Made by a program: the position numbers and the translations under genes
In this document: positions 5,442 to 24,735 of the stretch, piece by piece
Numbering within the stretch: the stretch's first letter is position 1
Layout: each line of letters begins with the position of its first letter
Notes under the pieces: generated by a model
Databases searched by the model: none
Seen by the model: the letters and a program-made list of their open reading frames with translations, nothing else
What the model was told of the DNA's origin: nothing
Source: an uncultured Dehalococcoidia bacterium
Lineage (GTDB): Bacteria > Chloroflexota > Dehalococcoidia > SM23-28-2
Direction: 5' to 3'
DNA length: 27,488 bases
Assembly (NCBI GenBank): GCA_964606995.1
Contig: CAZSHQ010000001.1
Location: 1-27,488 of the forward strand

Positions 5442-6935
5442 TTGTCCGAATACGTCCTGGCCCTCGACCAGGGAACCACCAGCTCGCGGGCCATCCTCTT
5501 CGACCGCCAGGGCCGGCCCGTGGCCAGCGCTGGTCACCCCATCCGCCAGATCTATCCCCAGAGCGGCTGGGTGGAGCACGACCCCCAGGAGATCTGGCAG
5601 TCGCAGCTGGCCTCGGCCCGTGAAGTCCTAGAGGCGGCTGGCATCCGCGCCTCCCAGGTTGCCGCTATCGGCATGACCAACCAGCGGGAGACCACCATCC
5701 TCTGGGATCGGCAGACAGGCGAACCGCTCGCCAATGCCATCGTCTGGCAGTGCCGCCGCACGGCCCCCCTCTGCCAGGAGCTCAAGGCGCGAGGGCTGGA
5801 GCCCTCCTTTCGCCAGAAGACGGGGCTGGTCATCGACCCCTACTTCTCCGGCACCAAGGTCGCCTGGATGCTGGACAACATCCCCGGCGCTCGAGCAAAG
5901 GCCGAGCAGGGCCAGGCCCTCTTCGGCACAGTGGACTCCTGGCTCCTCTACAAGCTGACGGGCGGCCGCATCCACGCCACCGACTATACTAACGCCTCGC
6001 GAACCCTCATGTTCAACATCTCCCGCCTTGCCTGGGACGAAGACATCCTGCGCGAGCTGGCCGTCCCTCCCTCCCTTCTGCCGGCTGTTCTTCCCTCCTC
6101 CGCCCTCTTCGGCGAGGCCGAGCCGTCCCTCCTGGGAGCAGCCCTCCCCATCGCTGGCATCGCCGGCGACCAGCAGGCCGCCCTCTTCGGCCAGGCCTGC
6201 TTTCAGGTGGGCATGGGCAAGAACACCTACGGCACCGGCTGCTTCGTCCTGATGAACGTCGGCCACGATAGCCTCCCCCTGGGCTCCTCCCTGGTCACCA
6301 CCATCGCCTGGGGCCTGAGCCAGGGGGTGGAGTACGCCCTCGAGGGGAGCATCTTCATCGCCGGCGCTGCCGTGCAGTGGCTGCGGGACGGCCTGGGCCT
6401 GATAGCCACCGCCGCCGAGAGCGAGGCGCTTGCCGCCAGCGTGCCCTCCAGCGACGGGGTATACGTGGTGCCCGCCTTCGTCGGCCTGGGCGCCCCCCAC
6501 TGGGACCCGCGGGCCCGGGGCACCATCGTGGGCATCACTCGCGGCACCACTCGCGCCCACCTGGTGCGGGCCACCCTGGAGGCCATCGCCTTCCAGACGC
6601 GCGACGTCATCGAAACGATGGAGAGCGAGTGCGGCCTGACCCTGCCGGAGCTGCGCGTGGACGGCGGCGCCGCCGCCAACGACCTCCTGATGCAGATCCA
6701 GGCCGACATCCTCGGCCGAGAGGTGGTGCGACCGGCGGTTACGGAGACCACCGCCCTGGGAGCCGCCTACCTGGCCGGCCTCGCCGTGGGCTTCTGGAAG
6801 GGACAGGACGAACTGGCCGGCAAGTGGCAGGTGGACAAGCGCTTCGAGCCCCGAATGGAAGCCAGCCAGCGCGACGAGCTGTACCAGGGCTGGAAGAAAG
6901 CGGTTGAGCGAGCCAAGGGCTGGGCCAGCCAGTAG
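5442..6935 (+). CDS. glpK: glycerol kinase
   Basis: Motifs [65 protein letters not shown] precedes a TTG start. Confidence 0.95.
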
Positions 6936-6995
6936 CCCGAGGCCAGGCCCTTCCTGTGGCGGCAACCCCCAGCGAATGCTAGACTGGATCTTGGA

Positions 6996-8444
6996 ATGAC
7001 TGACCGCAAGCTTGTCCGCGAATTGCAGGCCATTGTCGGCCGCGATGGCGTCATCCACGCCCCCGAAGACCTTCTGGTCTACGAGTACGACGCCACCATC
7101 GAGCGCGGCCTCCCCGAGGCCGTCGTCCTTCCCACCAGCGCCCAGCAGGTCTCCCAGGTAGTGAAGCTGGCCCGCCGTCGCGAGCTGCCGATCGTCGCCC
7201 GAGGGGCGGGTACCGGCCTCAGCGGCGGCGCCATTCCCGCCGCTGGCGGGATCCTGCTGGTCATGACCCGCATGAGGCGCATCCTGGAGGTCGATACGGA
7301 GAATCGCCTGGCAATCGTCGAGCCGGGCCTGGTGAACCTCGACCTCAGCGCCGCCTTGAGCCGCTACGGCCTCTACTACGCCCCCGATCCCTCCAGCCAG
7401 AAGGCCTGCACCCTGGGCGGCAATGTGGCTGAGAACGCCGGCGGCCCCCACTGCCTGGCTTACGGCGTCACTACCAATCATGTCCTGGGGCTGGAGGTGG
7501 TCCTGGCCGATGGCCAGATCGTCTGGCTGGGAGGCAAGACCGCCGACCGCCCGGGCTACGACCTGCGCACCGTGGTGATAGGCTCCGAGGGCACCCTGGC
7601 TATCGTCACCAAGATTATCGTGCGGCTTCTGCCCCTGCCGGAGGCCACCATCACCCTCCTGGCCATCTTCAACGAGATGGAGCAGGCCAGCCAGGCCGCC
7701 TCGACCATCATCGCCAAGGGGATTCTGCCCGCCGCCCTGGAGATGATTGACAAAGTGACCATGGGGGTGCTGGAGGAGGCCGTGCATGCTGGCTATCCCC
7801 CCGACGCCGATGCCGTCCTCCTCATCGAGGTTGAGGGCCGACAGGACAGCGTGGATGAGGAGGCAGCAGCTCTACGGGCCATCTGTGAAAACACAGGCGC
7901 TCGCGAGGTGCGAATCGGCTTCACGCCCGGCGAGCGAGAGGCCCTGTGGGCCGGGCGAAAGGAAGCGTTGGGAGCCCTGGGCCGCCTGGCCCCCAGCTAC
8001 TACATCCTCGATGGCACAGTGCCTCGCTCCAAGCTGCCCCAGGTATTGCAGGGCGTCTACGAAGTGGGCAAGAAGCACGGCTTCCTCATCGCCAATGTCT
8101 TCCATGCTGGCGACGGCAATCTCCACCCCAACATCGCCTTCGATGAGTCCCAGCCCGGCGAGGCGGAGAAGGTGCTGGCGGCCGCGGCGGAGATAATGCG
8201 CCTCTGCGTCGACGCCGGCGGAACCATCACCGGCGAGCATGGCGTGGGCATGGAGAAGCGCGACTTCATGCGCTGGATCTTCACAGACGACGATCTGGAG
8301 GCCATGAAGCGCATTCAGGTAGCCTTCGCTTCGGGGCAGCGCTTCAACCCGGGGAAGATCTTCCCCGCCGCCGTCGGCAGCGGCAAGGTCACCTCCCACC
8401 AGCGAGCGGTCACCCAATCGCTGGGGCCCGACGCCTACGTCTAG
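6996..8444 (+). CDS. glcD: glycolate oxidase-like FAD-linked oxidase subunit
   Basis: 'ARGAGTGLSGG', 'PDPSSQKACTLGGNVAENAGG', 'IGSEGTLAIVT', 'HAGDGNLH', 'GTITGEHGVG', 'FNPGKIF'. Confidence 0.9.
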   Translation: MTDRKLVRELQAIVGRDGVIHAPEDLLVYEYDATIERGLPEAVVLPTSAQQVSQVVKLARRRELPIVARGAGTGLSGGAIPAAGGILLVMTRMRRILEVDTENRLAIVEPGLVNLDLSAALSRYGLYYAPDPSSQKACTLGGNVAENAGGPHCLAYGVTTNHVLGLEVVLADGQIVWLGGKTADRPGYDLRTVVIGSEGTLAIVTKIIVRLLPLPEATITLLAIFNEMEQASQAASTIIAKGILPAALEMIDKVTMGVLEEAVHAGYPPDADAVLLIEVEGRQDSVDEEAAALRAICENTGAREVRIGFTPGEREALWAGRKEALGALGRLAPSYYILDGTVPRSKLPQVLQGVYEVGKKHGFLIANVFHAGDGNLHPNIAFDESQPGEAEKVLAAAAEIMRLCVDAGGTITGEHGVGMEKRDFMRWIFTDDDLEAMKRIQVAFASGQRFNPGKIFPAAVGSGKVTSHQRAVTQSLGPDAYV

Positions 8445-11565: not shown

Positions 11566-12156
11566 ATGAACCTCCCTTTCATCGGCAGATCTTCGGCTGT
11601 AGCCGCCGACGAAAAAGAGGGGCGCGCAGAGCATGCGGCTCCCGGCCTCTCTCTGACGGACTTTTCTGCTCGCTACCGCCACTTCTACCCCAAGGTTTTT
11701 GCCTTCGTCTACGGTCGCGTCCAGGACAAAGAAGTGGCCCTGGACCTCGTCTCGGAAGTGTTTGAGAAGGCCTTTTCCAAGGGTTCCTCCCTGCGCTCCG
11801 ATGGAGCCTTTGAGGCCTGGCTATTCACCATCGCCCGCAACGCCGTAGCCAGCCACTGGCGCAAAGAGAAACCGGCAGCCAAGGCCCTGCACAGCGTCGC
11901 CTGGGAGTGGGAGCTCACACAGCATCATCGCGACCCCGAACAGACCCTCCTGGAACGTGAACAGATGGCGATCCTTGTCTATCATGTGCACCAGCTTTCC
12001 CAACGGGAGCAAGAGATCCTCTCTTTGAAGTTCGATGCTGAACTAAGCAATCAGCACATCGCCCGGGTTATGGGGACCAGCGAGGTTAACGTACGGGTTA
12101 CCCTCTACCGGGCGCTGCATAAGCTGCGAGATCGGATGAAGAGTGTGCCACAATGA
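11566..12156 (+). CDS. ECF family RNA polymerase sigma factor
   Basis: sigma2 'DLVSEVFEKAF...AWLFTIARN' and sigma4 'LSQREQEILSLKF...IARVMGTSEVNVRVTLYRAL', with no sigma3. ATGA overlap with the downstream gene. Confidence 0.92.
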   Translation: MNLPFIGRSSAVAADEKEGRAEHAAPGLSLTDFSARYRHFYPKVFAFVYGRVQDKEVALDLVSEVFEKAFSKGSSLRSDGAFEAWLFTIARNAVASHWRKEKPAAKALHSVAWEWELTQHHRDPEQTLLEREQMAILVYHVHQLSQREQEILSLKFDAELSNQHIARVMGTSEVNVRVTLYRALHKLRDRMKSVPQ

Positions 12157-13541
12157 ATGAAGACGAACGCGCCAAGAAGCTCTGCGATGCCATAGACGCC
12201 ATCCTCCAGGGCGAAGAGCCCAAGATGGAGCTGGATGACCAGGAGCTTATTGAGCTCCTGCGCATCGCCCGCTTGCGTCACCAGGCCGGTCAGGCTCTGG
12301 CCAATGTCGGTTTCACCTACCAGGAGCTGCTGCGGCGTGTCCTCCAGGCCCGTATCGTAGCCCGCCAGATGGAGGAGGGCGGTGAGAAAGCTGATGATCC
12401 GCCCCCAGAAGTGAGCAGCATTATGGACGAAGACCCAGGGCAGTTCCTCGACCCCCTGGATCCTGGCTATGGTAAGCTTGTCAACTTCCTGGACTTCCAG
12501 CCCAGGCCGGCGCACGCTGCTCCTCCCGTCCAAGCCACAGCCGTCCACACGCACCCGACCGTCGCCCGCCAGGCCCGGCCGCGAACGCTGATTCCCAGCT
12601 GGTCGCGCCGCAGCGACCGGAGCTCGAAGAAGGCGGAAACCCTTTCCGCTGCCCTCGACCGTCTCCTTTCCAGCCGAAAGCGCACCATCTCGGTGGGCGA
12701 CCCCGACATCGACGAGCTGGTCCAGGTAGCCCAACTGCGTCGGTTCGTCGGCCAAAGCCTGGCCGCCGCCGGCAGCCCTTACAAGAGACGGCTCTGGACA
12801 GTCCTGCGCATGCGCTTGGCTGCCTCTCTGCGCCGCCAGTCCTACGCTGCCCAGCGGCCCTCCGTCATCGCCGCCGTTGGCCGCTTGTCGTGGCAGCAGG
12901 CAGCAGCGGTAGCCGCTGGCATAGCCCTGTTGCTAGCTGCCCTGGGGCCCCTACCGGCCACAGGCTTCGCCGACCATCCCATAAACCACCTCCTCAACCT
13001 TGTGGAGCAACACGTGGGCGTAGAGGAGGTCGATGGGCCGCCTCCCAACGAAGTGCCCATGACGGCCACTGAGGAGCTTATCGCGCCAGAAGAAGCCGCG
13101 CATCGTTTCGGTCTTGCCGTTCGCCAGCCTTCCTATCTGCCCGAGCGTTTCCAACTGGCTCGCTCGAGCTACCATTCTCAAAGCGGCAGCACCCCCGAGC
13201 AAGGCATGCTCGTCCTCATCTACACCGTCGGTGGCACTGATCCCACAATCCTTGCCGATACAGATCCCCAACTGTTGATATACGAGGAGAGAGCGTCCTC
13301 TAACAGCGTGGCGGTGATGAATGGCCAGGCCGAGGACATAACCCTGGCAGGTCATGTGCCCGGCACCTATGCACCGGCCCTCTGGGCGATGGGGGACCAA
13401 GGGACCCTCGAGGGCACAGACGCCAGCGCTGAAAGCCTGATCTTCGACGACGACGACGTTCGGGTTATCATCACCTACAGGAACGGCGATCAAGAAAAAG
13501 AAGAACTCCTCCGCGTCGCTGAGTCGATGCTAAGCCAATAG
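12153..13541 (+). CDS. Putative anti-sigma factor: two tandem cytoplasmic helical domains, one TM helix, DUF4367-like extracytoplasmic domain
   Basis: Translationally coupled to the ECF sigma. TM at about aa 250-268. C-terminal 'EEAAHRFGLAVRQPSYLPERFQL' is DUF4367-like. Internal repeat at aa 1-68 and 159-222. Confidence 0.7.
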   Translation: MNEDERAKKLCDAIDAILQGEEPKMELDDQELIELLRIARLRHQAGQALANVGFTYQELLRRVLQARIVARQMEEGGEKADDPPPEVSSIMDEDPGQFLDPLDPGYGKLVNFLDFQPRPAHAAPPVQATAVHTHPTVARQARPRTLIPSWSRRSDRSSKKAETLSAALDRLLSSRKRTISVGDPDIDELVQVAQLRRFVGQSLAAAGSPYKRRLWTVLRMRLAASLRRQSYAAQRPSVIAAVGRLSWQQAAAVAAGIALLLAALGPLPATGFADHPINHLLNLVEQHVGVEEVDGPPPNEVPMTATEELIAPEEAAHRFGLAVRQPSYLPERFQLARSSYHSQSGSTPEQGMLVLIYTVGGTDPTILADTDPQLLIYEERASSNSVAVMNGQAEDITLAGHVPGTYAPALWAMGDQGTLEGTDASAESLIFDDDDVRVIITYRNGDQEKEELLRVAESMLSQ

Positions 13542-13583
13542 GAGACCTCAGGACACTTCGTCCTGACAGGCCCAAGACAAGCG

Positions 13584-13625
13584 AAGGGGCGGCCAGCGTG
13601 CTGGCCGCCCCTTTAGTTTATTCTT
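13584..13625. terminator. Strong hairpin terminator between convergent genes
   Basis: AAGGGGCGGCCAGC (13584-13597) / GCTGGCCGCCCCTT (13600-13613), followed by a T-rich tract on plus. Confidence 0.8.
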
Positions 13626-13645: not shown

Positions 13646-13828
13646 TTAGTCTAGGTCCTCCCGCAGCCTTCTCTCCCTCATCATCTCGTACAGTAGATTC
13701 TCCACCACCATCAGCAGCAAAAGGACCGCCCGCTGCTGCCGCCGCGGCAGACGAGCCAAGAACTGCAACAGATCAGCGTCCACCTTCTCGGCCAGAGCAA
13801 CGCGGTTCTCACCGGTGTTGGCCATCAC
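13646..13828 (-). CDS. Small protein homologous to the C-terminal domain of the adjacent XRE regulator (SinI-like)
   Basis: 20/31 ungapped identity to the XRE C-terminus (VDADLLQFLARLPRRQQRAVLLLL vs VDPDLLRFLARLPRNRQRRLLLLL). Starts 2 nt after the XRE stop. Start is GTG 13828 or ATG 13825. Confidence 0.8.
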   Translation of the reverse strand: MMANTGENRVALAEKVDADLLQFLARLPRRQQRAVLLLLMVVENLLYEMMRERRLREDLD

Positions 13829-13830
13829 CC

Positions 13831-14250
13831 CTAATCCCGCCGGCTGGACAACCTGGAATCCTGGCTAGCCGATCCCTCTCCCTCTCCCCCTCCCCGCGTG
13901 TCCTCCACCAGGTGCTCCATGCCCTCCAGCAAGAGGAGCAAACGCCGTTGCCGGTTACGAGGCAGGCGGGCCAGGAAGCGCAGAAGATCCGGGTCCACGT
14001 TGGCCTCATAGCCCTCGTAGACCTGCTTCAGAGTGCGCACCGTCGGGTAGCCAGCGGCCTCGAACAGATCGTCGGCGTCCACGTGTATGGCCTGAGCAAC
14101 CCTAAGGATGACGGCGGCACTGGGATTCCGCACGTCCCCGTTCTCCAACTGAGATAGGTAACCCTGGCTGACAGCAGCCTCACCGGCTAGCTGCCCCTGA
14201 GTAAAACCTATCTCCTCGCGTAGTTCCCGAATCCTTTTGCCTAGCTCCAT
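13831..14250 (-). CDS. XRE/SinR-like helix-turn-helix transcriptional regulator (xre1)
   Basis: 'LGKRIRELRE.G.TQ.QLA..A.VSQGYLSQLE....NPS' HTH_3 pattern plus a C-terminal helical domain. Confidence 0.9.
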   Translation of the reverse strand: MELGKRIRELREEIGFTQGQLAGEAAVSQGYLSQLENGDVRNPSAAVILRVAQAIHVDADDLFEAAGYPTVRTLKQVYEGYEANVDPDLLRFLARLPRNRQRRLLLLLEGMEHLVEDTRGGGEGEGSASQDSRLSSRRD

Positions 14251-14279: not shown

Positions 14280-14308
14280 ATTCTCACCCTTTTTCTCAAA
14301 TTTGTCAA
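14280..14308 (-). promoter_or_regulatory. Leftward sigma70-type promoter (xre1 and mini-gene)
   Basis: On minus: TTGACA (14308-14303), 17 nt, GAGAAT (14285-14280). Confidence 0.45.
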
Positions 14309-14316
14309 TACAACTC

Positions 14317-14345
14317 TTGACAGTAACTCAATATTGATATATTAA
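14317..14345 (+). promoter_or_regulatory. Rightward sigma70-type promoter with palindromic spacer
   Basis: TTGACA (14317-14322) followed by AT-rich TG-a-TATATT/TATTAA (14335-14345). Perfect palindrome TCAATATTGA (14328-14337) lies in the spacer. Confidence 0.6.
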
Positions 14346-14425
14346 TAGGTTGGTTTAGAAGTTCCTTTCAAGAACGGTCTACACCATATACTCGGTAATC
14401 TTGTCCAAAGGAGGTGGTTGAGAGG

Positions 14426-14635
14426 GTGAACAACAAAGCTGACAAGCTCTGCCGCGCCATCGATGACCTTCTCCTGCCTCATCCTCGCAAGACCTTGGTG
14501 GTAGAGCCTGAGGCTCAAGAGTTGCTCCGGCTGGCCCACCTCCGCCGTGAGGCCGGCCGCAGGATTGCTGCCATAGGCGCCTCTCGGCTGGAGAAAAGCT
14601 GGCAACAGCTGGAAGCAACTCTGCGGGTCCGATAG
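14426..14635 (+). CDS. Small stand-alone copy of the anti-sigma cytoplasmic domain
   Basis: SD AAGGAGGTG precedes GTG 14426. Ungapped identity is 24/63 to repeat 1 and 23/63 to repeat 2 of the 12153 protein. Confidence 0.78.
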   Translation: MNNKADKLCRAIDDLLLPHPRKTLVVEPEAQELLRLAHLRREAGRRIAAIGASRLEKSWQQLEATLRVR

Positions 14636-14679: not shown

Positions 14680-15036
14680 ATGAAGATCTGGCGAACGCCG
14701 CTCCTGCTCCTAGTAGCAGCCATTGCCCTCCTGGCGATCGCCGGCGGAGCGCTCCTGCTCCAGTCTTCGGACGAGGCCGAGGCGAAAATCGTCTCCGGCG
14801 ACTCCCTGTCTTGCAGCGCAGTGAGCCCTTCAGGCGACGCGCTTGTCGTCGCTCCTGACTCAGCCGGAACATCTCTGACAACCACTGATACTGCCGCCTC
14901 CTCAGCCCAGTGCTACTTTGCCGGCATTACCAGGTTCCCGAACGGTTGCGGTAGCCAGGACCTCTATGTCTTGAGATACCTGTGCTACGATCCAGCCAAA
15001 GACTGGTTCTACGTAAACTACATGTACTGCATGTAG
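14680..15036 (+). CDS. Small exported Cys/aromatic-rich hypothetical protein
   Basis: Perfect SD AAGGAGGTG. N-terminal MK plus hydrophobic stretch, then A-E-A. Cys at positions 45, 78, 90, 102 and 117. Confidence 0.7.
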   Translation: MKIWRTPLLLLVAAIALLAIAGGALLLQSSDEAEAKIVSGDSLSCSAVSPSGDALVVAPDSAGTSLTTTDTAASSAQCYFAGITRFPNGCGSQDLYVLRYLCYDPAKDWFYVNYMYCM

Positions 15037-15060: not shown

Positions 15061-15090
15061 GGACGGCGGCGCCAGTTCCTGCCGCCGTCC
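15061..15090. terminator. Hairpin between convergent genes (likely bidirectional terminator)
   Basis: GGACGGCGGC (15061-15070) / GCCGCCGTCC (15081-15090), a perfect 10-bp stem. Confidence 0.6.
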
Positions 15091-15473: not shown

Positions 15474-15845
15474 TCACTGGCTTGGCAGAGCGTCCAGCCG
15501 CTGCCCCATGCTCTCCAGCAGGAGCAGTATGTAGCGCTGCTGCTCCTGCGACAGGCCAGCCAAGAATCTTAGCAGGTCAGGGTCAACCCTAGCCTGGTAG
15601 TTGCTGTTGGCTTTGCTAAGGCCCCTGACCGGCGTATAGCCAGCCGCGTCCAGCAGCTCATGGGGATCCACATACAGGGCGCTCGCCAGGCGCAATAGGA
15701 TGGCGGCGCTAGGATTCTTAACTTCTTCCCTCTCCAACTGGCAGAGGTAGCCCTGGCTCACCTCCGCGCAACCGGCCAGTCGGGCCTGGCTTAGGCCCAT
15801 CTGCTCCCGCAGTTCGCGAATTCGTCTGCCTAGCCTCATCTCCAC
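15474..15845 (-). CDS. XRE/SinR-like transcriptional regulator (xre2), paralog of xre1
   Basis: Same HTH ('VSQGYLCQLE...NPSAA') and the same C-terminal 'VDPDLLRFLA' domain. Starts 17 nt after the tadC stop. Confidence 0.88.
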   Translation of the reverse strand: MEMRLGRRIRELREQMGLSQARLAGCAEVSQGYLCQLEREEVKNPSAAILLRLASALYVDPHELLDAAGYTPVRGLSKANSNYQARVDPDLLRFLAGLSQEQQRYILLLLESMGQRLDALPSQ

Positions 15846-15862: not shown

Positions 15863-16765
15863 CTACAGCAGTTGCTCTCCTATCCGGATAACAGCCGGGC
15901 CCAAGATCACCAGCATAAAGGCAGGAAAGATGCAGATGACCAGTGGAAACATCATCTTGATCGGGGCTTCGTGCGCCAACTGCTCCGCCCGCTGCCGTCG
16001 ATGCGTCCGCATCTGGTCCGACTGCACCTTCAGCACATGGCCGATGCTCACCCCTAGCTGTTCGGCCTGGATGATGGCGTTGACAAAGGAGATGAGCTCT
16101 GGCACCCCCGTGCGCTGGCCCAGGTCGCTCAAGGCCTCCCGCCGCAAGCGCCCCATGCCCACCTCTCGCAGCGTCTGCGAAAGCTCCTTGGCCAGAGGAC
16201 CCTTCATCTGCTCACCGATCTTGGCCAGGGCAGCGTCCAGACCCAGCCCCGCCTCGACGCAGGTAGTGATTAGGTCCAGGGCATCGGGCAGGGTCTTGAT
16301 GATCAACCGCTGCCTCGACCGCACCGTTGTCCTCAGCCAGAACAAGGGCAGACTGAAGCCGATGATAGCCATCACCATCAGGCCCAGAAATCCCTGAGTG
16401 CTGATTCCCCCCAGAGTGGCAAGGGCAACGATAGTCAGCCCGGCGAAGAAAGCGATACAGACGGCCCAAAAGGTAACGAAGGTAGTAGCCGTCATAGAAC
16501 TGCCAGCCATGACGAGCGATTTCTGGATGCTAGCTAGGAAGTTGACCGGCAGCATTCCTGCCAGACCCTTACCGAAACCCTGAATAGTGGGGCGCAGTAT
16601 CCTATCGCTGAAGGGCAGGACCAGCTCCGACACGTCGCCGGCGGCCACCTGCCGTCGCAGCGTCTCCATGCGCATCTCCGTCACGCTCGTCCGCGGCCTC
16701 ACAAGGCCCAGCACCAGGAAGGCCACGGCAGCGAAAACGACGAAGGCGATCATCAGTGCAAACAT
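15863..16765 (-). CDS. tadC: Tad pilus inner-membrane platform protein (T2SS F family)
   Basis: 'LPDALDLITTCVEAGLGLDAAL', 'GVSIGHVL..QSDQMR..RRQRAEQLA.EAPIKMMFPL'. Confidence 0.9.
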   Translation of the reverse strand: MFALMIAFVVFAAVAFLVLGLVRPRTSVTEMRMETLRRQVAAGDVSELVLPFSDRILRPTIQGFGKGLAGMLPVNFLASIQKSLVMAGSSMTATTFVTFWAVCIAFFAGLTIVALATLGGISTQGFLGLMVMAIIGFSLPLFWLRTTVRSRQRLIIKTLPDALDLITTCVEAGLGLDAALAKIGEQMKGPLAKELSQTLREVGMGRLRREALSDLGQRTGVPELISFVNAIIQAEQLGVSIGHVLKVQSDQMRTHRRQRAEQLAHEAPIKMMFPLVICIFPAFMLVILGPAVIRIGEQLL

Positions 16766-16771
16766 CTGCTG

Positions 16772-17746
16772 CTACACCTCAATACTCATCATAGAGCGAA
16801 TCAGAAAGATACCCATGACCTCCAGCCCCCCTGCTATGAGGAGCAAGACCTTGCCGACAGTTTCAGTAAATAGAGGGGCCATGTAATCGGGGTTCATGGC
16901 GAACATGATCAGGCCCACGAAGATAGGCAGCGCGCCGATGACAACCCCCGTCATGCGCTGTTGAGCGGTGAGGGTCTTGATCTCTCCCCGAATGCGGTCC
17001 CGTTCCCTTATGGTGTAAGCCACGTTGTCCAGCGTCTGGGCCAGATTGCCCCCGACCGACCTCTGAATAGCGACGGCGGTAACAACCATCTCCATGTCGG
17101 GGCTAGCGATGCGATCAGCCAGAGCCTGGATAGCGACCTCAGCCCCGGCACCCAGGTTCGCATCCTGGAGCATGCGCTTGAGCTCATCCGCCAGCGGTGG
17201 CGATATCTGACGGCTGGCGTATTCGAAACCCTGCAGCAATCCATACCCCGATTTCAGGGAGTTGGAGACCAGGGTGAGCATCTCCTCCAGTTGACCGTTG
17301 ATCTTGGCCTGGCGGCTGCGCCGCCGACGACCCACGTACCAGCGGGGCAAGAAGTAGCCAATCGGAGCCGCCGGCAAAGCGATGAGCCAGTTGCGCGTCA
17401 GCAGGAGAGTCAGCAGAAGGAGAAGCATAGCCACGGCAACCCTGAGGGTCATGTATTCGCCTACCCGCAAGGGAATGCCCGCCCGTTCCAGCGCCAGGAC
17501 TGAGCTCTCCACTTGGCGGCTGCCACCCAGAATGCCAGCGAGGGGGCCCAGCTTGCCGCGATCGGTAGGACGCAACAGCGACTCATCACCGACGCCGCTG
17601 GGGCGACTCGTCTCGCCCCGACTAAGCTCCTCCAGGCGGCGGCTAAGTGCCCCCTGCCCAGAGCCCCGAATCTGAGAAATGCCAATGACAAGCAGCGTTA
17701 CAGTGGCCATCACGGCCACGGCTACTAGAAGCGCCAGCGGTTGCAT
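16772..17746 (-). CDS. tadB: Tad pilus inner-membrane platform protein (T2SS F family)
   Basis: 'LVSNSLKSGYGLLQG', 'IQRSVGGNLAQTLDNVAYTIRER..IRGEIKTLTAQQRMT'. Confidence 0.9.
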   Translation of the reverse strand: MQPLALLVAVAVMATVTLLVIGISQIRGSGQGALSRRLEELSRGETSRPSGVGDESLLRPTDRGKLGPLAGILGGSRQVESSVLALERAGIPLRVGEYMTLRVAVAMLLLLLTLLLTRNWLIALPAAPIGYFLPRWYVGRRRRSRQAKINGQLEEMLTLVSNSLKSGYGLLQGFEYASRQISPPLADELKRMLQDANLGAGAEVAIQALADRIASPDMEMVVTAVAIQRSVGGNLAQTLDNVAYTIRERDRIRGEIKTLTAQQRMTGVVIGALPIFVGLIMFAMNPDYMAPLFTETVGKVLLLIAGGLEVMGIFLIRSMMSIEV

Positions 17747-17750
17747 CGGC

Positions 17751-19130
17751 CTACCACTCCGCTACGTTCTGAAACAAGCCCTCAGGCACAGCAATGCCGG
17801 CCAGGGCGAAGCCTTCGGCGAAGGTAGGACGGATGCCCGTGGACTGCAGCCGCCCCAAAATACGGCCGTGCTCATCGATGCCCTCCTGCTCAAAGCGGAA
17901 GATGTCCTGGAGAGTGACAATCTCCCCCTCCATGCCGCTCACCTCAGTGATGTGGGTTATGCGGCGGCCGCCGTCGCGGAAGCGCGCTATCTGAAGAACA
18001 AGGTGAAGGGCCGACGACATCTGCTCACGGATGGCCCGCATTGGCAGGTCCAGATTGGCCATTAGCACCATGTTCTCCAGCCTGGCCAGAGCATCGCGAG
18101 GCGAGTTAGAGTGAATGGTGCTGAGGGAGCCCTCGTGGCCGGTGTTCATGGCATTGAGCATGTCGAACGCCTCGCCGCCACGCACCTCACCGATGAGGAT
18201 ACGGTCGGGCCGCATGCGCAGGGTGTTGCGCAACAGCTCCCGCTGGGTCACCTCCCCCCGGCCATCCACGTTGGGGGGGCGAGCCTCCAGGCTGATGACG
18301 TGCGGCTGCTGAAGCTGGAGCTCCAGAGGGTCCTCGATGGTCACAATGCGCTCGGAATCGGGAATGAAGGCAGACACGGCGTTGAGAAGGGTCGTCTTGC
18401 CGGTGCCTGTGCCGCCGGAGACCAGGGCATTCAAACGAAGCTCCACACAAGCCCCCAAGAACTGGCCTATTTCGGCGCTGAGGGTGCCCACCTTCACCAG
18501 GTCATCCATGGTCAACTTGCTTCTAAGGAACTTGCGGATGGTCATGGTGGGGCTCTTGGGGGCCAAGGGAGGGATAATAACGTTCACGCGCGAGCCATCG
18601 GCCAGGCGGGCATCCACCATGGGAGAGCTCTCGTCGACGCGCCGCCCCAGGGGAGCGATGATCCGCTCCACAATCTGCATGACATGGTCCACATCGCGAA
18701 AGCGAACGTCGCTCTGATACATGATGCCATCCCGCTCGAAGTACACCTCCTCGGGCGAGTTCACCATCACCTCAGAGATAGACGAGTCGTGCAGCAAGGG
18801 CTCGATGGGTCCCAGACCCACCACCTCATCCACCACCCGGGTGGCCACGGCATCCCGCACCAGGGCGTTCAGAGACTCCCGCCCCAGCAGGGCCTTTACT
18901 GCCTCCTCCACCGCCTGACGCCGCTTGTCAGGAGGCATCGCCTCCAACTTCTCGGCTTCCAGCTCATCGATGAGCCTCTGATGGAAGCGATAGACCAGTT
19001 GCTCTAGTTCCTCCCCCAAACGAGCCGAGCGGCGGGCCGGCGCTGCCACCTGAGAACTAGACTTACCTGGTGGCTGGTCACCGTCATTCTGCTCTGGAAG
19101 TCGTTCAGTTCGCCGGCGCCACTGACTCAT
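17751..19130 (-). CDS. cpaF: Tad pilus assembly ATPase CpaF/TadA
   Basis: Walker A '[12 protein letters not shown]', 'TIEDPLEL', '[18 protein letters not shown]', '[12 protein letters not shown]'. SD AAGGAG. Confidence 0.95.
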
Positions 19131-19142
19131 CTTTCTCCTTCC

Positions 19143-20447
19143 TTATCTGGTCCATTCCTCTGCCGCCGGTGTCGCGGGTACCTCCGACACCGCCTCGGCA
19201 GCCCCTTCCGCGGCGACCCCTGGCTCGGCCTGCGGCTCGCCCTGTGGCCTTCCCAGCAGAGGGATGCGGTCGCCCAGGCGCTCCAGCATGCCCTTGGGCC
19301 GGGAGCGGATGCCGCCAATGGCGTAGGACAGCTCCACAAGGCTCTGAGAGGCTTTGGACTTGGGCTTGGCCGCCACTATGGGCATACCCAACTGCGTGGT
19401 CTGGGAGATGCTACGATCGTAGGGGATTGTCCAGAAGATCTCCTTGCCCAGAACCCGTCGAATATCGACCCGTGTGTCGCGGTGGGCATCGCTGGTGTGG
19501 TTGATCACTATCTTCACCTTCTCCGACGGGAAGGACCAGGAGCGAAGCATCTCCAGGGCCAGGATGGTATCCTTCAGGCTGGCCAGATCGGGAGTGGCTA
19601 TCAGCAGAAGAATGGTGCACATCTCCAGAGCACGAGACACGATGTCGTTGAAGGCACCGGGTGTGTCCAGAAGGACGTAATCGTGGGTGGTGGCCAGGAC
19701 CGACACCATCTTCTCGATGTGGCCGGGGTGGATGCTGTGCCATTCGGATGGCCGAATGGGCGCCGGCAAGATGGCCACGCCAGTGCCATGCGTGTACAGG
19801 CAGGACTGGACGGCCTCGCGATCGATCTCCTCGTCCGGTAGAGCCAGGTCAGAGATGCTGCGGTCGGTGGGCATGTCCATGAGGATGGCCACGTCGCCAA
19901 AGCGGGTGTCCAGGTCCACCAGGGCCACCGATTGGCCCGTCTTCTGCACCAGGGCAGTAGCCAGATTGGTAGCGATGGTAGTCTTGCCGATCCCTCCTTT
20001 GGCCCCGAAGATGGTAACCACCGTCCCGTAGGCCTGGGCCTCCACCTCCCCTGCCAAGCGCTGCTGGCGCCTCTCTTCCTGAGCAAGAGCAGCGTGGATG
20101 GAGCGACCCAGATCCTCCTCCTGCAGAGGAGCGACGAGGTAGTCCTTGACCCCCACCTGCATGGCGCGCCGGATGTAACTAGGGTCGCCGATTGATGAGT
20201 AGGCGATGATCGGCACCTGGGGGAGAACGTCGCCCACTGACTCGAGGGTCTGCAGGGAGCGAGCTATAGGCTCCTCCAGGGCCACCACCACCACCTCAGG
20301 CGTCGTCTCGCGGGCCAGGGTCATGGCCTCCATCCCGTAGCCGGCAGCGCCCATCACAGCGAAGCCTGACAGGGCCAGCATTCGCTGGGTTTCCGCCCGG
20401 CTGGACGGATCCTGGTCGATTATGATTACCTTGGGGTTCCTAGCCAC
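19143..20447 (-). CDS. cpaE: CpaE/TadZ: receiver-like domain plus ParA/MinD ATPase
   Basis: N-terminal REC fold, deviant Walker A 'GAKGGIGKTTIA', 'VDLDTRFGDV'. SD GAGGAGG precedes a GTG start. Confidence 0.88.
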   Translation of the reverse strand: MARNPKVIIIDQDPSSRAETQRMLALSGFAVMGAAGYGMEAMTLARETTPEVVVVALEEPIARSLQTLESVGDVLPQVPIIAYSSIGDPSYIRRAMQVGVKDYLVAPLQEEDLGRSIHAALAQEERRQQRLAGEVEAQAYGTVVTIFGAKGGIGKTTIATNLATALVQKTGQSVALVDLDTRFGDVAILMDMPTDRSISDLALPDEEIDREAVQSCLYTHGTGVAILPAPIRPSEWHSIHPGHIEKMVSVLATTHDYVLLDTPGAFNDIVSRALEMCTILLLIATPDLASLKDTILALEMLRSWSFPSEKVKIVINHTSDAHRDTRVDIRRVLGKEIFWTIPYDRSISQTTQLGMPIVAAKPKSKASQSLVELSYAIGGIRSRPKGMLERLGDRIPLLGRPQGEPQAEPGVAAEGAAEAVSEVPATPAAEEWTR

Positions 20448-20465
20448 CTAAGGCCTCCTCCCGCA

Positions 20466-21341
20466 TTAACGTCCGAAAGGATTGGGAAGGTTAGAAGGCA
20501 AGATCTCAGGGTTGACAATGGCTGGCACCGTTGACTCGTCCGTTTCTCCCACCGGCCGCAACGACAGTTTGAGAACGCCCATCTCCTCCGCCAGGGCCAG
20601 CTTCTGAGCCTCCGCGGGTGTCACTGCCAGGGTCACGTTGGTGGCATCGGGATTGGGGTCGGCGGGATTGGGGAGAACGGGCTGAGATCCCTCACCGGTC
20701 GTGCCGTCGTCGCCCTCCTCAGGCAAGGCCTCAGCCACCTCCTGGGCCACTGCCAGCACCTGCACGTTCTGCAAGACAGTGACCGCCACGTAATCATCAA
20801 AGTCCTCCGAGGACGTGGGGTCGTCCTCCTTGATCCCGTAGAACGTAACATCGAAAACGCCGATGACATCCACGAAGTCCCCGGGCAGGATCAGGCCACC
20901 GGCGCCCGTGACCTCACTCACCTGCACGGACACCGCTCGCTGGTCGGGCGGCACCACATAAGAAAGGGGCAATTCCTCGTCACCCGCCCCCGGCACCTCC
21001 CTGGCGGTTGCCGCCACCTTGCTGCTCAGAATCTGTTCCTCGGCAGCGATAGGCAGACGAGTGACCATGCCAATCAACTGATCAGTGGATGAAAAGGCAT
21101 CCGGATGCACTGCGCTCTCTGCCAGGGACTTCACTTCCACCATTTCAGCCGTGATGCGCACACGAGCGGACATGTCCTCCGTGGCGACCACCACTGGCTT
21201 GGTGGCCGCGGCGCTCGCCTCCCCGTCACCCCCACCCTGGCTGAGGTAGACGTAGACCAGCACCGCGCTAACAAGGCCCAAGAAAAGGGCCACTAATAAG
21301 ACCGCTTTGTTGCTCCTGCCGCCCCCAACGCGATTTCGCAT
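20466..21341 (-). CDS. cpaB: Flp pilus assembly protein CpaB/RcpC
   Basis: N-terminal TM, SAF domain 'VVVATED....RIT.EMV', 'RAVSVQVSEVTGAGGLILPGDFVDV', 'VLQNVQVLAV', 'VTLAVTPAEAQKL'. Start set at ATG 21341. Confidence 0.9.
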   Translation of the reverse strand: MRNRVGGGRSNKAVLLVALFLGLVSAVLVYVYLSQGGGDGEASAAATKPVVVATEDMSARVRITAEMVEVKSLAESAVHPDAFSSTDQLIGMVTRLPIAAEEQILSSKVAATAREVPGAGDEELPLSYVVPPDQRAVSVQVSEVTGAGGLILPGDFVDVIGVFDVTFYGIKEDDPTSSEDFDDYVAVTVLQNVQVLAVAQEVAEALPEEGDDGTTGEGSQPVLPNPADPNPDATNVTLAVTPAEAQKLALAEEMGVLKLSLRPVGETDESTVPAIVNPEILPSNLPNPFGR

Positions 21342-21447
21342 CACAGGTTCCCCCTCATGCCCGCAGCTCTGCCGGCCAGGCAAGCTGCTAACGGGCGCGG
21401 GCCTTCTTCTGCCCGCCCCCTACCTCGAACGTTCGCTCACGACCCGG

Positions 21448-22716
21448 TCATGGGTTCAGCGTCGGCACCAGACGGATGCCGGTCACGAGCTCCCAGCCTA
21501 TCGTTTCGAAAACCGGAGTCAGGTCCCCTCCCTCGGGCTCTTCGAAGTAGTGGTACTCGTCGGTGGCCATGGCCTGCAGGACATCCCGCGCCGGGGCGTC
21601 CTCCCACTCACCGCTGTCGCACCCGCACAGACTTCCGGGTCCCGGATCTTCCACGCCATAGCCAATCGTGTATACCTCGATCCCCAGAGCCTTGGCGTCT
21701 TCCGCCATTTCGACGGCGTGCTCGCAGGGGTTGTAGCTGTCGGGCTCGGGGCCGCACTGACCGTTCTGGCCATCCTCTGGCTGGTTGGCCGCTCCGTCGG
21801 AGAGGAAGATTATCCCCCAGTGCTCGTCGGGCCTGCCGTTGGTCTGCAACTCCTCGGCGGCGGCCCACATCGGATCGCCTAGGTCCGTGCCCACCTGGGA
21901 CGTTTTCAGGCAGCTAATGTTGGCCACCAGCGAGCTGCTCTCGTCCGGCGAGCCGTCGGGGTTCTGATAGTCATCGCTCAGATGGGTGGTCACCCAGCGC
22001 GACTCCGGCAGGTTCGGATAGGGCAGCGGCGGGTTGCACTGCCAACCCCCCGGCCACGACCACCAGCACTTGTGCGGTTCGCCCCAGCAGTCGCTCGAGC
22101 TCTTGGCCGGGCCCAGGGCCGCCAGGCCTACCCGCTGCCACTCCTCGGAGAACACTCCCAGGATGGCCTTAGCCGCGTTCTTGGCGTTCGTCATGTCGCT
22201 GCCGCTCATGCTCTGCGTCCGGTCGAGCACCATCATCACATCCAGCGCCCGGAAAGGAGCGGCGCCACACAGACCACGGCAGCCAGCGGCGGTGGCCGAA
22301 ACCGTGACGTCGTCCAGGCCCAGAAGCGGTGCGAAATTCAGGGGGACGTTGCGCTCAGCGTGAACGACGATGGTATCCCACCTGTCCGCCGACGAGTCGC
22401 AGGCGATCTCGTATTCACTGGTGCAGGTGAAGCTTATGTCCACGCTGTCCCCATCGGTTACATCGACCTCGTTCTTATCGAGCCACTCGTGAGCGTCTGC
22501 CTCAGCCTCGGTCCACGAGTCAGGCAATTTCTGGGCAGCCGCTAGAGCAGCGGCGTCAACAGCCTTCTGGAGCTCGCGCTTCTCATGCATGAACATCCCT
22601 ACGTCCAGCACCAGCGCCGCGAAGCCCAGGATCACTATCATGGCCAGGGTCCCCAGCACCAGGCCTTGACCGAACTCCTGTCGCCAGAGGGAACGCAGTA
22701 GCCTCAATAGCCTCAC
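21448..22716 (-). CDS. tadG: TadG-like pseudopilin with von Willebrand A domain
   Basis: Prepilin-like 'G/QGLVL...AALVLDVG...ELQKAVDAAALAAA' and vWA 'LDVMMVLDRTQSM...GTDLG...IIFLSDG'. Start is GTG 22716 (SD GGAG) or GTG 22725 (overlapping the tadE stop). Confidence 0.8.
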   Translation of the reverse strand: MRLLRLLRSLWRQEFGQGLVLGTLAMIVILGFAALVLDVGMFMHEKRELQKAVDAAALAAAQKLPDSWTEAEADAHEWLDKNEVDVTDGDSVDISFTCTSEYEIACDSSADRWDTIVVHAERNVPLNFAPLLGLDDVTVSATAAGCRGLCGAAPFRALDVMMVLDRTQSMSGSDMTNAKNAAKAILGVFSEEWQRVGLAALGPAKSSSDCWGEPHKCWWSWPGGWQCNPPLPYPNLPESRWVTTHLSDDYQNPDGSPDESSSLVANISCLKTSQVGTDLGDPMWAAAEELQTNGRPDEHWGIIFLSDGAANQPEDGQNGQCGPEPDSYNPCEHAVEMAEDAKALGIEVYTIGYGVEDPGPGSLCGCDSGEWEDAPARDVLQAMATDEYHYFEEPEGGDLTPVFETIGWELVTGIRLVPTLNP

Positions 22717-22721
22717 GCTAC

Positions 22722-23192
22722 TCACTCCAATCGAAAGTCAGCAGTAGAACTCAGGGTGAAGGACTCGCCAACAGTGCCGCCGCTGACCACGCCGACGATG
22801 CCAGCCAGAGGAGTGATCAGTGAGTAATCGTAGCTCACGTCCACCACCACCGACTCCCCCGGCAGACCTTCGGCATTGGTAACAGTGACCTCCAGGTCGT
22901 CCCCTAACGCGCCTGCCGTGTCGCGCACTTTCCCCTCGATGCACTGGTCGAGCGAGCCCTGCCCATAGCAGGGAGAGCCCACCGCGTCAAGGGCAGGATG
23001 CACAGCCCCCAGACGGCCGCCTTCACGCGCCGAGTTGGTGACTGTAATCCAGGCATGGAAAGCCATGCCAAAATCGACAATTGCACAAAGCACTAGAAGG
23101 AAGATGGGCAACACAAGGGCAAACTCCACCAGCGACTGTCCACCTTCCCCCTTGCCTCTGCGTCTGGTGATGCGCTTAAGGATAGCTAGCAT
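22722..23192 (-). CDS. tadE: TadE-like minor pseudopilin
   Basis: 'G/QSLVEFALVLPIFLLVLCAIVDFG...NSAREGGR' TadE signature. Confidence 0.9.
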   Translation of the reverse strand: MLAILKRITRRRGKGEGGQSLVEFALVLPIFLLVLCAIVDFGMAFHAWITVTNSAREGGRLGAVHPALDAVGSPCYGQGSLDQCIEGKVRDTAGALGDDLEVTVTNAEGLPGESVVVDVSYDYSLITPLAGIVGVVSGGTVGESFTLSSTADFRLE

Positions 23193-23218
23193 GGGCTTCC
23201 TCGTGCTTGACTGCTTCT

Positions 23219-23298
23219 GCAGGAGCGTCGCGGCTCAACCCGAGCGCCTGACGGCACATCTGCCTTGGTTAGCCCTCGTTGGACCGCGACACCCCTGC
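23219..23298 (-). other. Intercistronic RNA stem-loop between flp and tadE
   Basis: 15-bp stem (plus 23219-23233 with 23284-23298). Its two imperfect positions are G-U pairs only on the transcribed minus strand. Confidence 0.6.
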
Positions 23299-23321
23299 TG
23301 TTCTGTTTCTACCTGACTGGC

Positions 23322-23510
23322 CTAGCCTCCGAGAGCGGCCGCTATCTCGTCCAGGAAGCCAGCAATGGCCAAACCGATGATCCCCAAAGCACCCATGCAT
23401 ACCACGGCAATGAGGGCCATGATCAGGCCGTACTCGGTTAGGGCCTGCCCCGACTCCGAGCGGAAGCGGGTTACCAGCCCCACGAAAAACTCGCTGATCT
23501 TGCTTAGCAT
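23322..23510 (-). CDS. flp: Flp family type IVb/c major pilin
   Basis: 62 aa with 'G/QALTEYGLIMALIAVV' (E+5, Y+6 Flp motif). SD GGAGG upstream. Confidence 0.92.
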   Translation of the reverse strand: MLSKISEFFVGLVTRFRSESGQALTEYGLIMALIAVVCMGALGIIGLAIAGFLDEIAAALGG

Positions 23511-24000: not shown

Positions 24001-24735
24001 ATGCCGATCGTCGCCGCCCTCCTCGGCCTCATAACCGGCCACATACTGGAAGTGCTCCTGGACCGTTTCTACTCCGACGCGCCTCCCGGAGGCCCTCTCG
24101 TCCGCTGCTCGGCCTGCCGTTCCCCTATCCGCCTCCTTCACCTCCTCCCCCTGCTAGGCTACCTCTGGCATCGTGGCCGCTGTCCCGACTGCGACCAGCG
24201 ATTGCCCATTCGCGTCCTCCTCCTGCCGCCGGCCAGCGCCCTCGTGTTCGCCCTTACCGCCCTGGCCAGCGACCAGTGGGGCCCAACGATCCTGGGCGGC
24301 CTGTTCGCCGCTATCTTCCTGGCCCTGATGACCACAGACCTGGAGCGCCGCCTCATCCCCAATCGCATCGTCTACCCCGCCATGCTCCTGGCCATCGCTG
24401 TGTCCTGCGCCTGGCCCGACCGGGGCATAGGACAAACCCTCGCCGGCGGCGGCCTGGCCTTCGCCATCATGCTCATCGTCTACATCGTCTCCCTCGGCCG
24501 CTTCGGCTTCGGCGATGTGAAGATGGCCACTCTCATGGGCTTCGCCGTGGGCTTCCCTGCCGTGACGGTGGGCCTCTTCTTCACGGCCATCAGCGCCGGC
24601 CTGGCAGCCGCGCTCCTGTTGCTCACAGGGGTCATGCGGCGAGGCCAGTACATTCCTTATGGCCCCTTTATCGCCCTGGGAGCCATCATCTCCCTCCTCT
24701 GGGGCGACACCATCATCGACTGGTACACGGGCTAG
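24001..24735 (+). CDS. A24 family prepilin peptidase with N-terminal Zn-binding domain
   Basis: 'RCSAC...GRCPDC' N-domain. Catalytic aspartates in 'TTDLERRLIPN' and 'GFGDVKM'. C-terminal 'IPYGPFIALG'. Confidence 0.9.
   Translation: MPIVAALLGLITGHILEVLLDRFYSDAPPGGPLVRCSACRSPIRLLHLLPLLGYLWHRGRCPDCDQRLPIRVLLLPPASALVFALTALASDQWGPTILGGLFAAIFLALMTTDLERRLIPNRIVYPAMLLAIAVSCAWPDRGIGQTLAGGGLAFAIMLIVYIVSLGRFGFGDVKMATLMGFAVGFPAVTVGLFFTAISAGLAAALLLLTGVMRRGQYIPYGPFIALGAIISLLWGDTIIDWYTG

Follow-up and report, generated by a model that had tools for sequence, protein, structure and literature searches.

A conserved stand-alone paralogue of the C-terminal domain of XRE-family regulators in uncultured Dehalococcoidia

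In the stretch of DNA analysed here (27,488 nucleotides from an uncultured Dehalococcoidia bacterium; the window), the gene of an XRE-family regulator, xre1, is directly followed by a small gene whose product, the mini-protein, is conserved, co-expressed with this regulator and paralogous to the hairpin of its C-terminal domain (CTD), of which it is a stand-alone version. A second regulator with the same CTD, xre2, is encoded nearby, next to a Flp/Tad pilus operon. We lean slightly towards the view that the mini-protein pairs with the CTD of an XRE regulator and antagonises the regulator. The three genes and their homologous parts are:

13646..13825, minus strand: mini-protein gene, ATG start, 59 amino acids plus stop codon; stand-alone paralogue of an XRE CTD
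13679..13786, minus strand: core of the mini-protein (K14-M49, about residues 13-48), 36 residues homologous to the XRE CTDs by hhalign
13831..14250, minus strand: xre1, XRE-family regulator of 139 amino acids (HTH_31, E 2.4e-13)
13897..14004, minus strand: CTD of xre1, residues 83-118, homologous to the mini-protein; presumed oligomerisation domain
15474..15845, minus strand: xre2, paralogous XRE regulator of 123 amino acids (HTH_31, E 1.2e-10)
15483..15590, minus strand: CTD of xre2, residues 86-121, homologous to the mini-protein by BLASTP

The mini-protein gene is a real protein-coding gene. The initial annotation had described it as an open reading frame of 60 amino acids that lacks a helix-turn-helix (HTH) domain, and the latter was borne out: the ORF matches no Pfam family and an HTH is absent. 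The length needed correction: the program-made list of ORFs has 13646..13828 on the minus strand, beginning at GTG 13828, but this codon is not kept in relatives and the conserved start is ATG 13825, resulting in 59 amino acids. This is also the length in 103 of the best 120 of 270 clusters of mini-protein homologues. Both regulators carry the Cro/C1-type HTH that is typical of the XRE family (Pfam HTH_31/HTH_3 at residues ~2-66), the mini-protein does not, and outside the HTH neither xre1 nor xre2 has a Pfam match. The two regulators are 59% identical to each other across 111 amino acids.

The similarity of the mini-protein to the C-terminus of xre1 had been given as 20 of 31 positions, and a hand count on the translations returned the same number (V15-L45 of the mini-protein against V85-V115 of xre1). 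Its reported resemblance to xre2 was recovered by BLASTP, with 16/25 identities to residues 86-110 (E 9e-8); the BLASTP comparison with xre1 gives short pieces only, owing to compositional adjustment. When an alignment of 20 mini-protein orthologues was compared with one of 37 xre1 and xre2 sequences, hhalign paired residues 13-48 of the mini-protein with residues 83-118 of xre1 (probability 96.6%, E 6e-10, 36 columns, 56% identity). By both methods, homology is confined to the CTD of the two regulators. The core of the mini-protein has the motif [VI]DP[DE]LL..L..[LM]PR..QR..LLLL..., and all three paralogue families retain its hydrophobic positions and its polar motifs DP[DE] and QR, which fits one packing mode for all of them.

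The 270 clusters (at 90% identity) come from a search of 5.8 billion proteins; all named sources are MAGs of Dehalococcoidia/Chloroflexota, and the proteins are annotated as 'hypothetical protein'. When 1.8 billion representatives were searched exhaustively with a profile, no more than 15 (clustered at 50% identity) reached an E-value of <=0.001, and no stand-alone relatives were found outside this lineage; with so few matches, the family is narrow and lineage-specific. A scan in which each species was represented by a single genome yielded 52 loci, and the mini-protein ORF is intact in 52/52 of these species-level Dehalococcoidia/Chloroflexota genomes. Across the pairs that gave a usable dS, the Nei-Gojobori dN/dS ratio comes to 0.126 when the entire gene is taken and to 0.095 when only the 36 codons of the shared core are; the corresponding values in xre1 are 0.120 (HTH) and 0.259 (CTD). 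Synonymous sites are near saturation (median pS ~0.66) and the constraint therefore acts on the protein and not on the DNA. Conservation and dN/dS had been proposed as a check of the initial annotation, and they find the gene neither absent nor degenerate in relatives.

Within the core, mean identity among orthologues is 83% for the mini-protein, 60% for the CTD of xre1 and 54% for the CTD of xre2; between the families it is 42% (mini-protein to xre1), 40% (mini-protein to xre2) and 46% (xre1 to xre2). The mini-protein and the two CTDs are three old paralogous lineages, with the stand-alone copy being the most constrained. A short protein of no known family, encoded directly after a parent-like gene, could also be the non-functional remnant of a partial xre1 duplication, or a chance ORF. 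Intactness in all 52 genomes at saturated synonymous divergence, together with the low dN/dS of gene and core, refutes the remnant reading, and the existence of 270 clusters and the conservation of both the start codon and the coupling to xre1 argue in the same direction; we regard it as extremely improbable. A candidate for a natural fusion of xre1 and the mini-protein, a homologue of 194 amino acids (P0249), proved to result from a frameshift, with read-through into an incorrect frame.

An xre1 orthologue is found directly upstream of the mini-protein gene in 52/52 genomes. The elements around the gene pair are:

13826..13830, minus strand: spacer of 5 nt between the xre1 stop codon (TAG, 13831-13833) and the ATG of the mini-protein gene
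14280..14308, minus strand: promoter of the xre1-mini-protein bicistron, sigma-70-like (TTGACA-17-GAGAAT)
14303..14322, unstranded: inverted repeat TGTCAA-N8-TTGACA that overlaps the -35 box; candidate operator
13583..13614, unstranded: terminator-like hairpin, bidirectional and intrinsic, 14-bp stem with 10 G-C pairs, T-runs

The close adjacency to xre1 that had been reported holds, but with ATG 13825 as the conserved start the gap is 5 nt rather than 2 nt. Of the 52 genomes, 42 have between -1 and +5 nt from the xre1 stop codon to this ATG; five have a gap of 7 to 18 nt, two have one of 140-166 nt, and three genomes are not cleanly scorable. So short a gap indicates translational coupling of the mini-protein to xre1. 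The sole promoter-like site for the mini-protein gene is the one upstream of xre1. Among the 48 loci with enough upstream sequence for promoter and inverted-repeat counts, 35 have an equivalent sigma-70-like promoter (TTGACA-N15-19-nAnAAT) that ends ~30 nt before xre1, and 20 have an inverted repeat (GTCAA-N8-13-TTGAC) at the same spot over the -35 box, where the background rate is 0.0038 per 150 nt. Given this conserved promoter and inverted repeat, xre1 and the mini-protein gene are a bicistron that has its own promoter and a plausible operator. A search of the window with <=2 mismatches allowed found no second copy of the inverted repeat, and looking for an operator shared with the flp promoter gave no evidence either way on direct control of the Tad operon. 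Downstream of the mini-protein gene, the terminator of the initial annotation was confirmed as the hairpin listed above, which is called on both strands and lies between the convergent mini-protein and anti-sigma genes.

Tight linkage is also what one would expect of an obligate, constitutive subunit of the active xre1 complex, needed for regulation and not for relieving it. Such a subunit might cap or bridge CTD hairpins and in this way set the oligomeric state, or it might block the mixing of xre1 and xre2. The gap of -1 to +5 nt in most genomes implies fixed co-production, xre1 and the mini-protein gene are never apart in the 52 genomes, nor in the two exceptional loci L053 and L054 described below, and the mini-protein is more conserved than either CTD, as a structural hub would be. 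With <=5 nt to xre1 and the mini-protein gene downstream, there is no obvious route to separate expression of the mini-protein, and a fixed-stoichiometry partner fits the tight coupling as well as an anti-repressor does. However, the known stand-alone copies of oligomerisation domains are antagonists: SinI and SlrA act on SinR (PMC3163267, PMC3917956), AimX on AimC (10.1101/2025.11.23.689978) and TrlR on TraR (PMC3907764). Moreover, sinI and sinR themselves are in part expressed as a bicistron, and it has been argued that SinI captures SinR more readily when the two are co-translated (PMC3917956), so co-expression is compatible with antagonism. We consider an obligate subunit rather unlikely.

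Upstream of the regulators, the window contains a pilus locus:

15863..23510, minus strand: Flp/Tad pilus operon (Pfam matches)

The order of its genes is flp pilin (23322-23510), tadE, tadG, rcpC/cpaB, tadZ (REC), cpaF/tadA, tadB and tadC; xre2 starts 17 nt past the tadC stop codon and xre1 is ~1.6 kb from xre2. The arrangement Tad locus, xre2, (in some genomes) a DUF192 gene, xre1 and mini-protein gene is found in 41-43 of the 52 genomes, and 45/52 have a second XRE paralogue upstream of xre1. The second paralogue, xre2, is missing in L053 and in L052/L054. In L053 (JBHIBF010000010.1), which belongs to a divergent lineage, tadC is followed by a single XRE gene and then by the mini-protein gene, with a start-stop overlap between the two and no xre2; in L052/L054 (WHTN01000003.1), the whole Tad block has been lost from the site together with xre2, and xre1 and the mini-protein gene are kept beside the ECF sigma gene. 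The persistent unit is the pair of xre1 and mini-protein gene, retained without xre2 or without the Tad locus. The F420 genes that flank the Tad locus in the window abut xre1 in L052/L054. The locus is chromosomal and not part of a prophage, and Rfam and tRNA scans of the window returned nothing.

Two genes run convergent to the mini-protein gene, one anti-sigma-like and one for an ECF sigma factor. The ECF sigma gene has this orientation in 45/52 genomes, including L052 with no Tad locus, and the mini-protein could be an accessory of this sigma/anti-sigma pair, for example as a mimic of sigma region 4 (L..LP..QR.VLLL). One JGI record (P0017) even calls a homologue of 59 amino acids 'DNA-directed RNA polymerase specialized sigma24 family protein', a label that is unsupported. 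A resemblance to sigma region 4 was rejected: none of 20 family members matches Sigma70_r4 or r4_2 (0/20 for Sigma70_r4 at E<=10), and the probability in an hhalign comparison of the mini-protein family with the ECF sigma factor of the window is 0.07%. The genes are furthermore convergent and not co-transcribed, and vertical inheritance of the whole region can explain their adjacency. A sigma-related function is very improbable.

The predicted structures are consistent with a shared hairpin. AlphaFold2, supplied with the orthologue alignment, models the mini-protein as two helices (residues 3-24 and 28-58, mean pLDDT 86.5) that join at a conserved L-P-R turn. For xre1 it predicts a monomer-type HTH domain made of five helices (3-66), followed by a helix that acts as linker (71-82) and by a C-terminal helix-turn-helix (87-93 and 98-119) that corresponds to the hairpin of the mini-protein; residues 120-139 form a disordered tail. 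Read from the sequence, residues V34-V41 in the second helix of the mini-protein (VLLLLMVV) are hydrophobic on all faces; because a lone hairpin would be unable to bury them, the mini-protein is expected to pack with helices of at least one other chain in a bundle. The disordered tail of xre1 (window ~13834-13893, minus strand) is variable in length: the stretch that links the CTD to the conserved C-terminus contains ~2 to 9 tandem copies of the heptapeptide EDTRRGA/V in L001, L002, L004, L006, L008 and in the proteins P0146, P0172 and P0183, and essentially one copy in xre1 of the window.

Foldseek returned no match at E<=10 for the mini-protein, which is uninformative with a hairpin of 59 amino acids as query, and the only match of its profile in the PDB was a chance coiled coil (E 0.39); no relative of the mini-protein or of the CTD alone is present in Pfam, NCBIfam, PHROGs or the PDB. 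The CTD of the XRE regulators has no detectable relative of known function, and a CTD-only profile found neither SinR nor DdrO in the PDB. With full-length xre1 as query, RghR, DdrO and SinR (1b0n_A) were among the top Foldseek matches, and DdrO is also among the best matches by sequence (E 8e-10).

DdrO of Deinococcus resembles xre1 in having an XRE HTH followed by a helical CTD and needs dimerisation of the CTD to bind DNA (PMC6868357, PMC12828697). In contrast to the function that we favour here, DdrO is inactivated by the COG2856 protease IrrE, which cleaves its CTD, and not by a mimic protein. No COG2856 protease is encoded among the ORFs of the window, and there is thus no gene pair of the DdrO/IrrE or ImmR/ImmA type. 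A resemblance between the CTDs themselves, suggested by the full-length alignment reaching into the CTD, was not established, as the CTD-only profile misses DdrO.

One part of the mini-protein has no counterpart in the XRE regulators: the end of its C-terminal helix (Y46-E56, EMMRERRLREDLE) is charged and nearly invariant. This raises the question of whether the mini-protein serves as a decoy that competes for a third factor docking on the CTD (for instance a protease, signalling protein or component of the Tad system), or whether it is an independent effector that reaches another target via this conserved charged helix. The HMM alignment between xre1 and DdrO enters the start of the CTD (PDLLRYL versus PDWVRTL), and in DdrO the CTD is the target of the protease (PMC12828697). 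However, the similarity to DdrO is not significant with the CTD alone, the window encodes no protease of the COG2856/ImmA type and no other candidate partner, and the hydrophobicity of the hairpin points to oligomerisation in a helix bundle. A decoy or effector function is quite unlikely.

SinR of Bacillus subtilis oligomerises by a C-terminal helical hook (PMC3163267), and the initial annotation had called the mini-protein SinI-like. As an analogy this is justified by its size, the absence of an HTH, the homology to a CTD and the predicted hairpin, but a sequence relation to SinI was rejected: PF08671 (SinI) is not matched at E<=10 by any of 20 orthologues, nor by the mini-protein, xre1 or xre2 of the window, and hhalign of the mini-protein family with SinI (sequence verified against 1b0n_B) gives a probability of 0.25%. 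The mini-protein may be seen as a mechanistic analogue of SinI, not as a member of the SinI family, and since there is no detectable sequence homology to SinI, it is likely to have originated independently.

Like SinI and SlrA, the mini-protein is an HTH-less protein of ~57-59 amino acids with homology only to the CTD of the adjacent XRE repressor (PMC3163267, PMC3917956); both consist of two helices (for the mini-protein, the two-helix hook is an AlphaFold2 prediction) and are encoded beside, and co-transcribed with, a repressor of ~110-140 amino acids. Both loci have a second XRE paralogue with the same domain (SlrR and xre2, respectively) and a link to surface attachment, the biofilm matrix in Bacillus and the Tad pilus here. 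The wiring is different: sinI is located upstream of sinR and controlled by Spo0A, with sinR having its own promoter, whereas the mini-protein gene is downstream of, and coupled to, xre1, with the only promoter-like site ahead of xre1 and no apparent means of separate control. In addition, the mini-protein differs from SinI in being more conserved than the CTD of the repressor, in its extra, conserved and charged helix end and in its host, a member of the Chloroflexota.

Antagonists known from other systems offer partial likenesses. AimX, of the arbitrium phages of Bacillus, is also small and helical, binds the XRE-type repressor AimC and prevents its oligomerisation for operator binding (10.1101/2025.11.23.689978), but is phage-encoded and has its transcription set by the arbitrium signal, while the mini-protein is chromosomal and has no PHROG match. 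TrlR of Agrobacterium is a paralogue of TraR that has kept the dimerisation part but not the DNA-binding part and blocks TraR by forming inactive heterodimers (PMC3907764), and CerN of Cereibacter antagonises CerM, also without an HTH (PMC11655674). In contrast to the mini-protein, both are of the LuxR fold and family and retain a large ligand-binding domain, and TrlR is separately induced by opines. A type II toxin-antitoxin system with an XRE antitoxin was considered and rejected, as the mini-protein matches no toxin family of Pfam, NCBIfam or PHROGs and is a paralogue of the C-terminus of the regulator.

We propose the following mechanism. The mini-protein arose by ancient duplication of the two-helix CTD of the neighbouring XRE regulators; its gene shares the dedicated promoter of xre1, and its translation is coupled to the stop codon of xre1. 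By analogy, we infer that the CTD of the XRE regulators is an oligomerisation domain. The hairpin of the mini-protein would pair with that of xre1, and possibly also with that of xre2, so that a mixed helical bundle takes the place of a contact between two XRE molecules. With fewer HTH domains, such a complex would bind operators less cooperatively; the outcome would be antagonism of the SinI type by mimicry of an oligomerisation domain. As the mini-protein is made in step with xre1, on and off states would depend on relative stability or translation yield and not on separate transcription.

The two parts of this proposal do not carry the same weight. A physical interaction of the mini-protein with an XRE regulator is probable, while it is slightly doubtful that the net effect is antagonism; both the formation of a heteromer and its negative effect are inferred. 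Mean core identity between the mini-protein and the regulators is almost the same within genomes as between genomes (42% versus 42% for xre1, 40% versus 39% for xre2). A candidate signal of co-evolution, F46 of the mini-protein with LLSLL..GI of xre1, was discarded: it covaries in one clade and is inseparable from phylogeny.

A more far-reaching reading is that xre1, the mini-protein and xre2 are an independently evolved Dehalococcoidia counterpart of SinR, SinI and SlrR: the first two would be co-translated from an autoregulated mRNA, and their ratio, set post-translationally, for example by differential turnover of the disordered and repeat-variable tail of xre1, would decide on Tad-mediated attachment. 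We think this unlikely. If it were true, it would be a case of convergent evolution of a lifestyle switch based on a microprotein, with wiring other than that of SinI and SinR.

The principle of mimicry is already well known; the mini-protein family, unannotated and strongly conserved, is apparently an independent origin of a microprotein that mimics an oligomerisation domain, in uncultured Dehalococcoidia and wired differently from SinI. If the mini-protein binds the CTD of an XRE regulator, bacteria have evolved regulators that copy an oligomerisation domain more than once, and this case would fall in a phylum for which genetics barely exists. A testable handle would then also be available on the control of the Tad adhesion pilus in uncultured Dehalococcoidia: xre1, the mini-protein and xre2 are all small enough to be expressed, mixed and assayed in vitro. 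For annotation, the gain is twofold, namely a protein family that is a 'hypothetical protein' everywhere and the unannotated CTD of the XRE regulators.

Several further observations concern the neighbourhood of the gene pair. Divergent from xre1, an ORF of 73 amino acids (window 14414-14635, plus strand) is homologous to a domain that is present twice in the anti-sigma-like protein (12153-13541, plus strand), with 22/55 identities to residues 4-58 (E 1e-8) and 25/68 to residues 160-227 (E 7e-9); it is the second mini-ORF at the locus to consist of a single, isolated domain that a neighbouring regulator also contains, and its occurrence is limited to the 10 closest genomes (L001-L004, L006-L011). 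The same 10 genomes conserve the ORF that follows it (window 14680-15036, plus strand), which encodes 118 amino acids with a hydrophobic N-terminus (signal or TM) and a Cys/Tyr-rich C-terminus and has no family match; beyond it lies a terminator-like hairpin (15061-15090, plus strand). One of the 10, L004 (JAIVWR010000077.1), is a 6-kb contig that is binned as 'Acidobacteriota bacterium' (coverage 0.38); it has the 73-amino-acid ORF, xre1, the mini-protein gene (92% identity), the anti-sigma gene and the ECF sigma gene in this order and is probably mis-binned Dehalococcoidia.

In the Tad operon, the TadZ/CpaE-like ParA ATPase (window 19143-20447, minus strand) has an N-terminal receiver domain (Response_reg, E 1.1e-11), which suggests that pilus assembly may receive a phosphorylation input. 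The Flp-type pilin (23322-23510, minus strand) has 62 amino acids and the processing motif G/QALTEYGLI; its Flp_Fap match (E 3.4e-5) is below the Pfam cut-off, and its gene is divergent from a prepilin peptidase gene (Peptidase_A24, window 24001-24735, plus strand). Further away, an ORF of 719 amino acids (window 5628-7787, minus strand) has no Pfam match and overlaps a gene for an FAD-oxidase (GlcD-like, 6996-8444) on the other strand; long spurious ORFs occur in G+C-rich DNA, and this is probably one of them.
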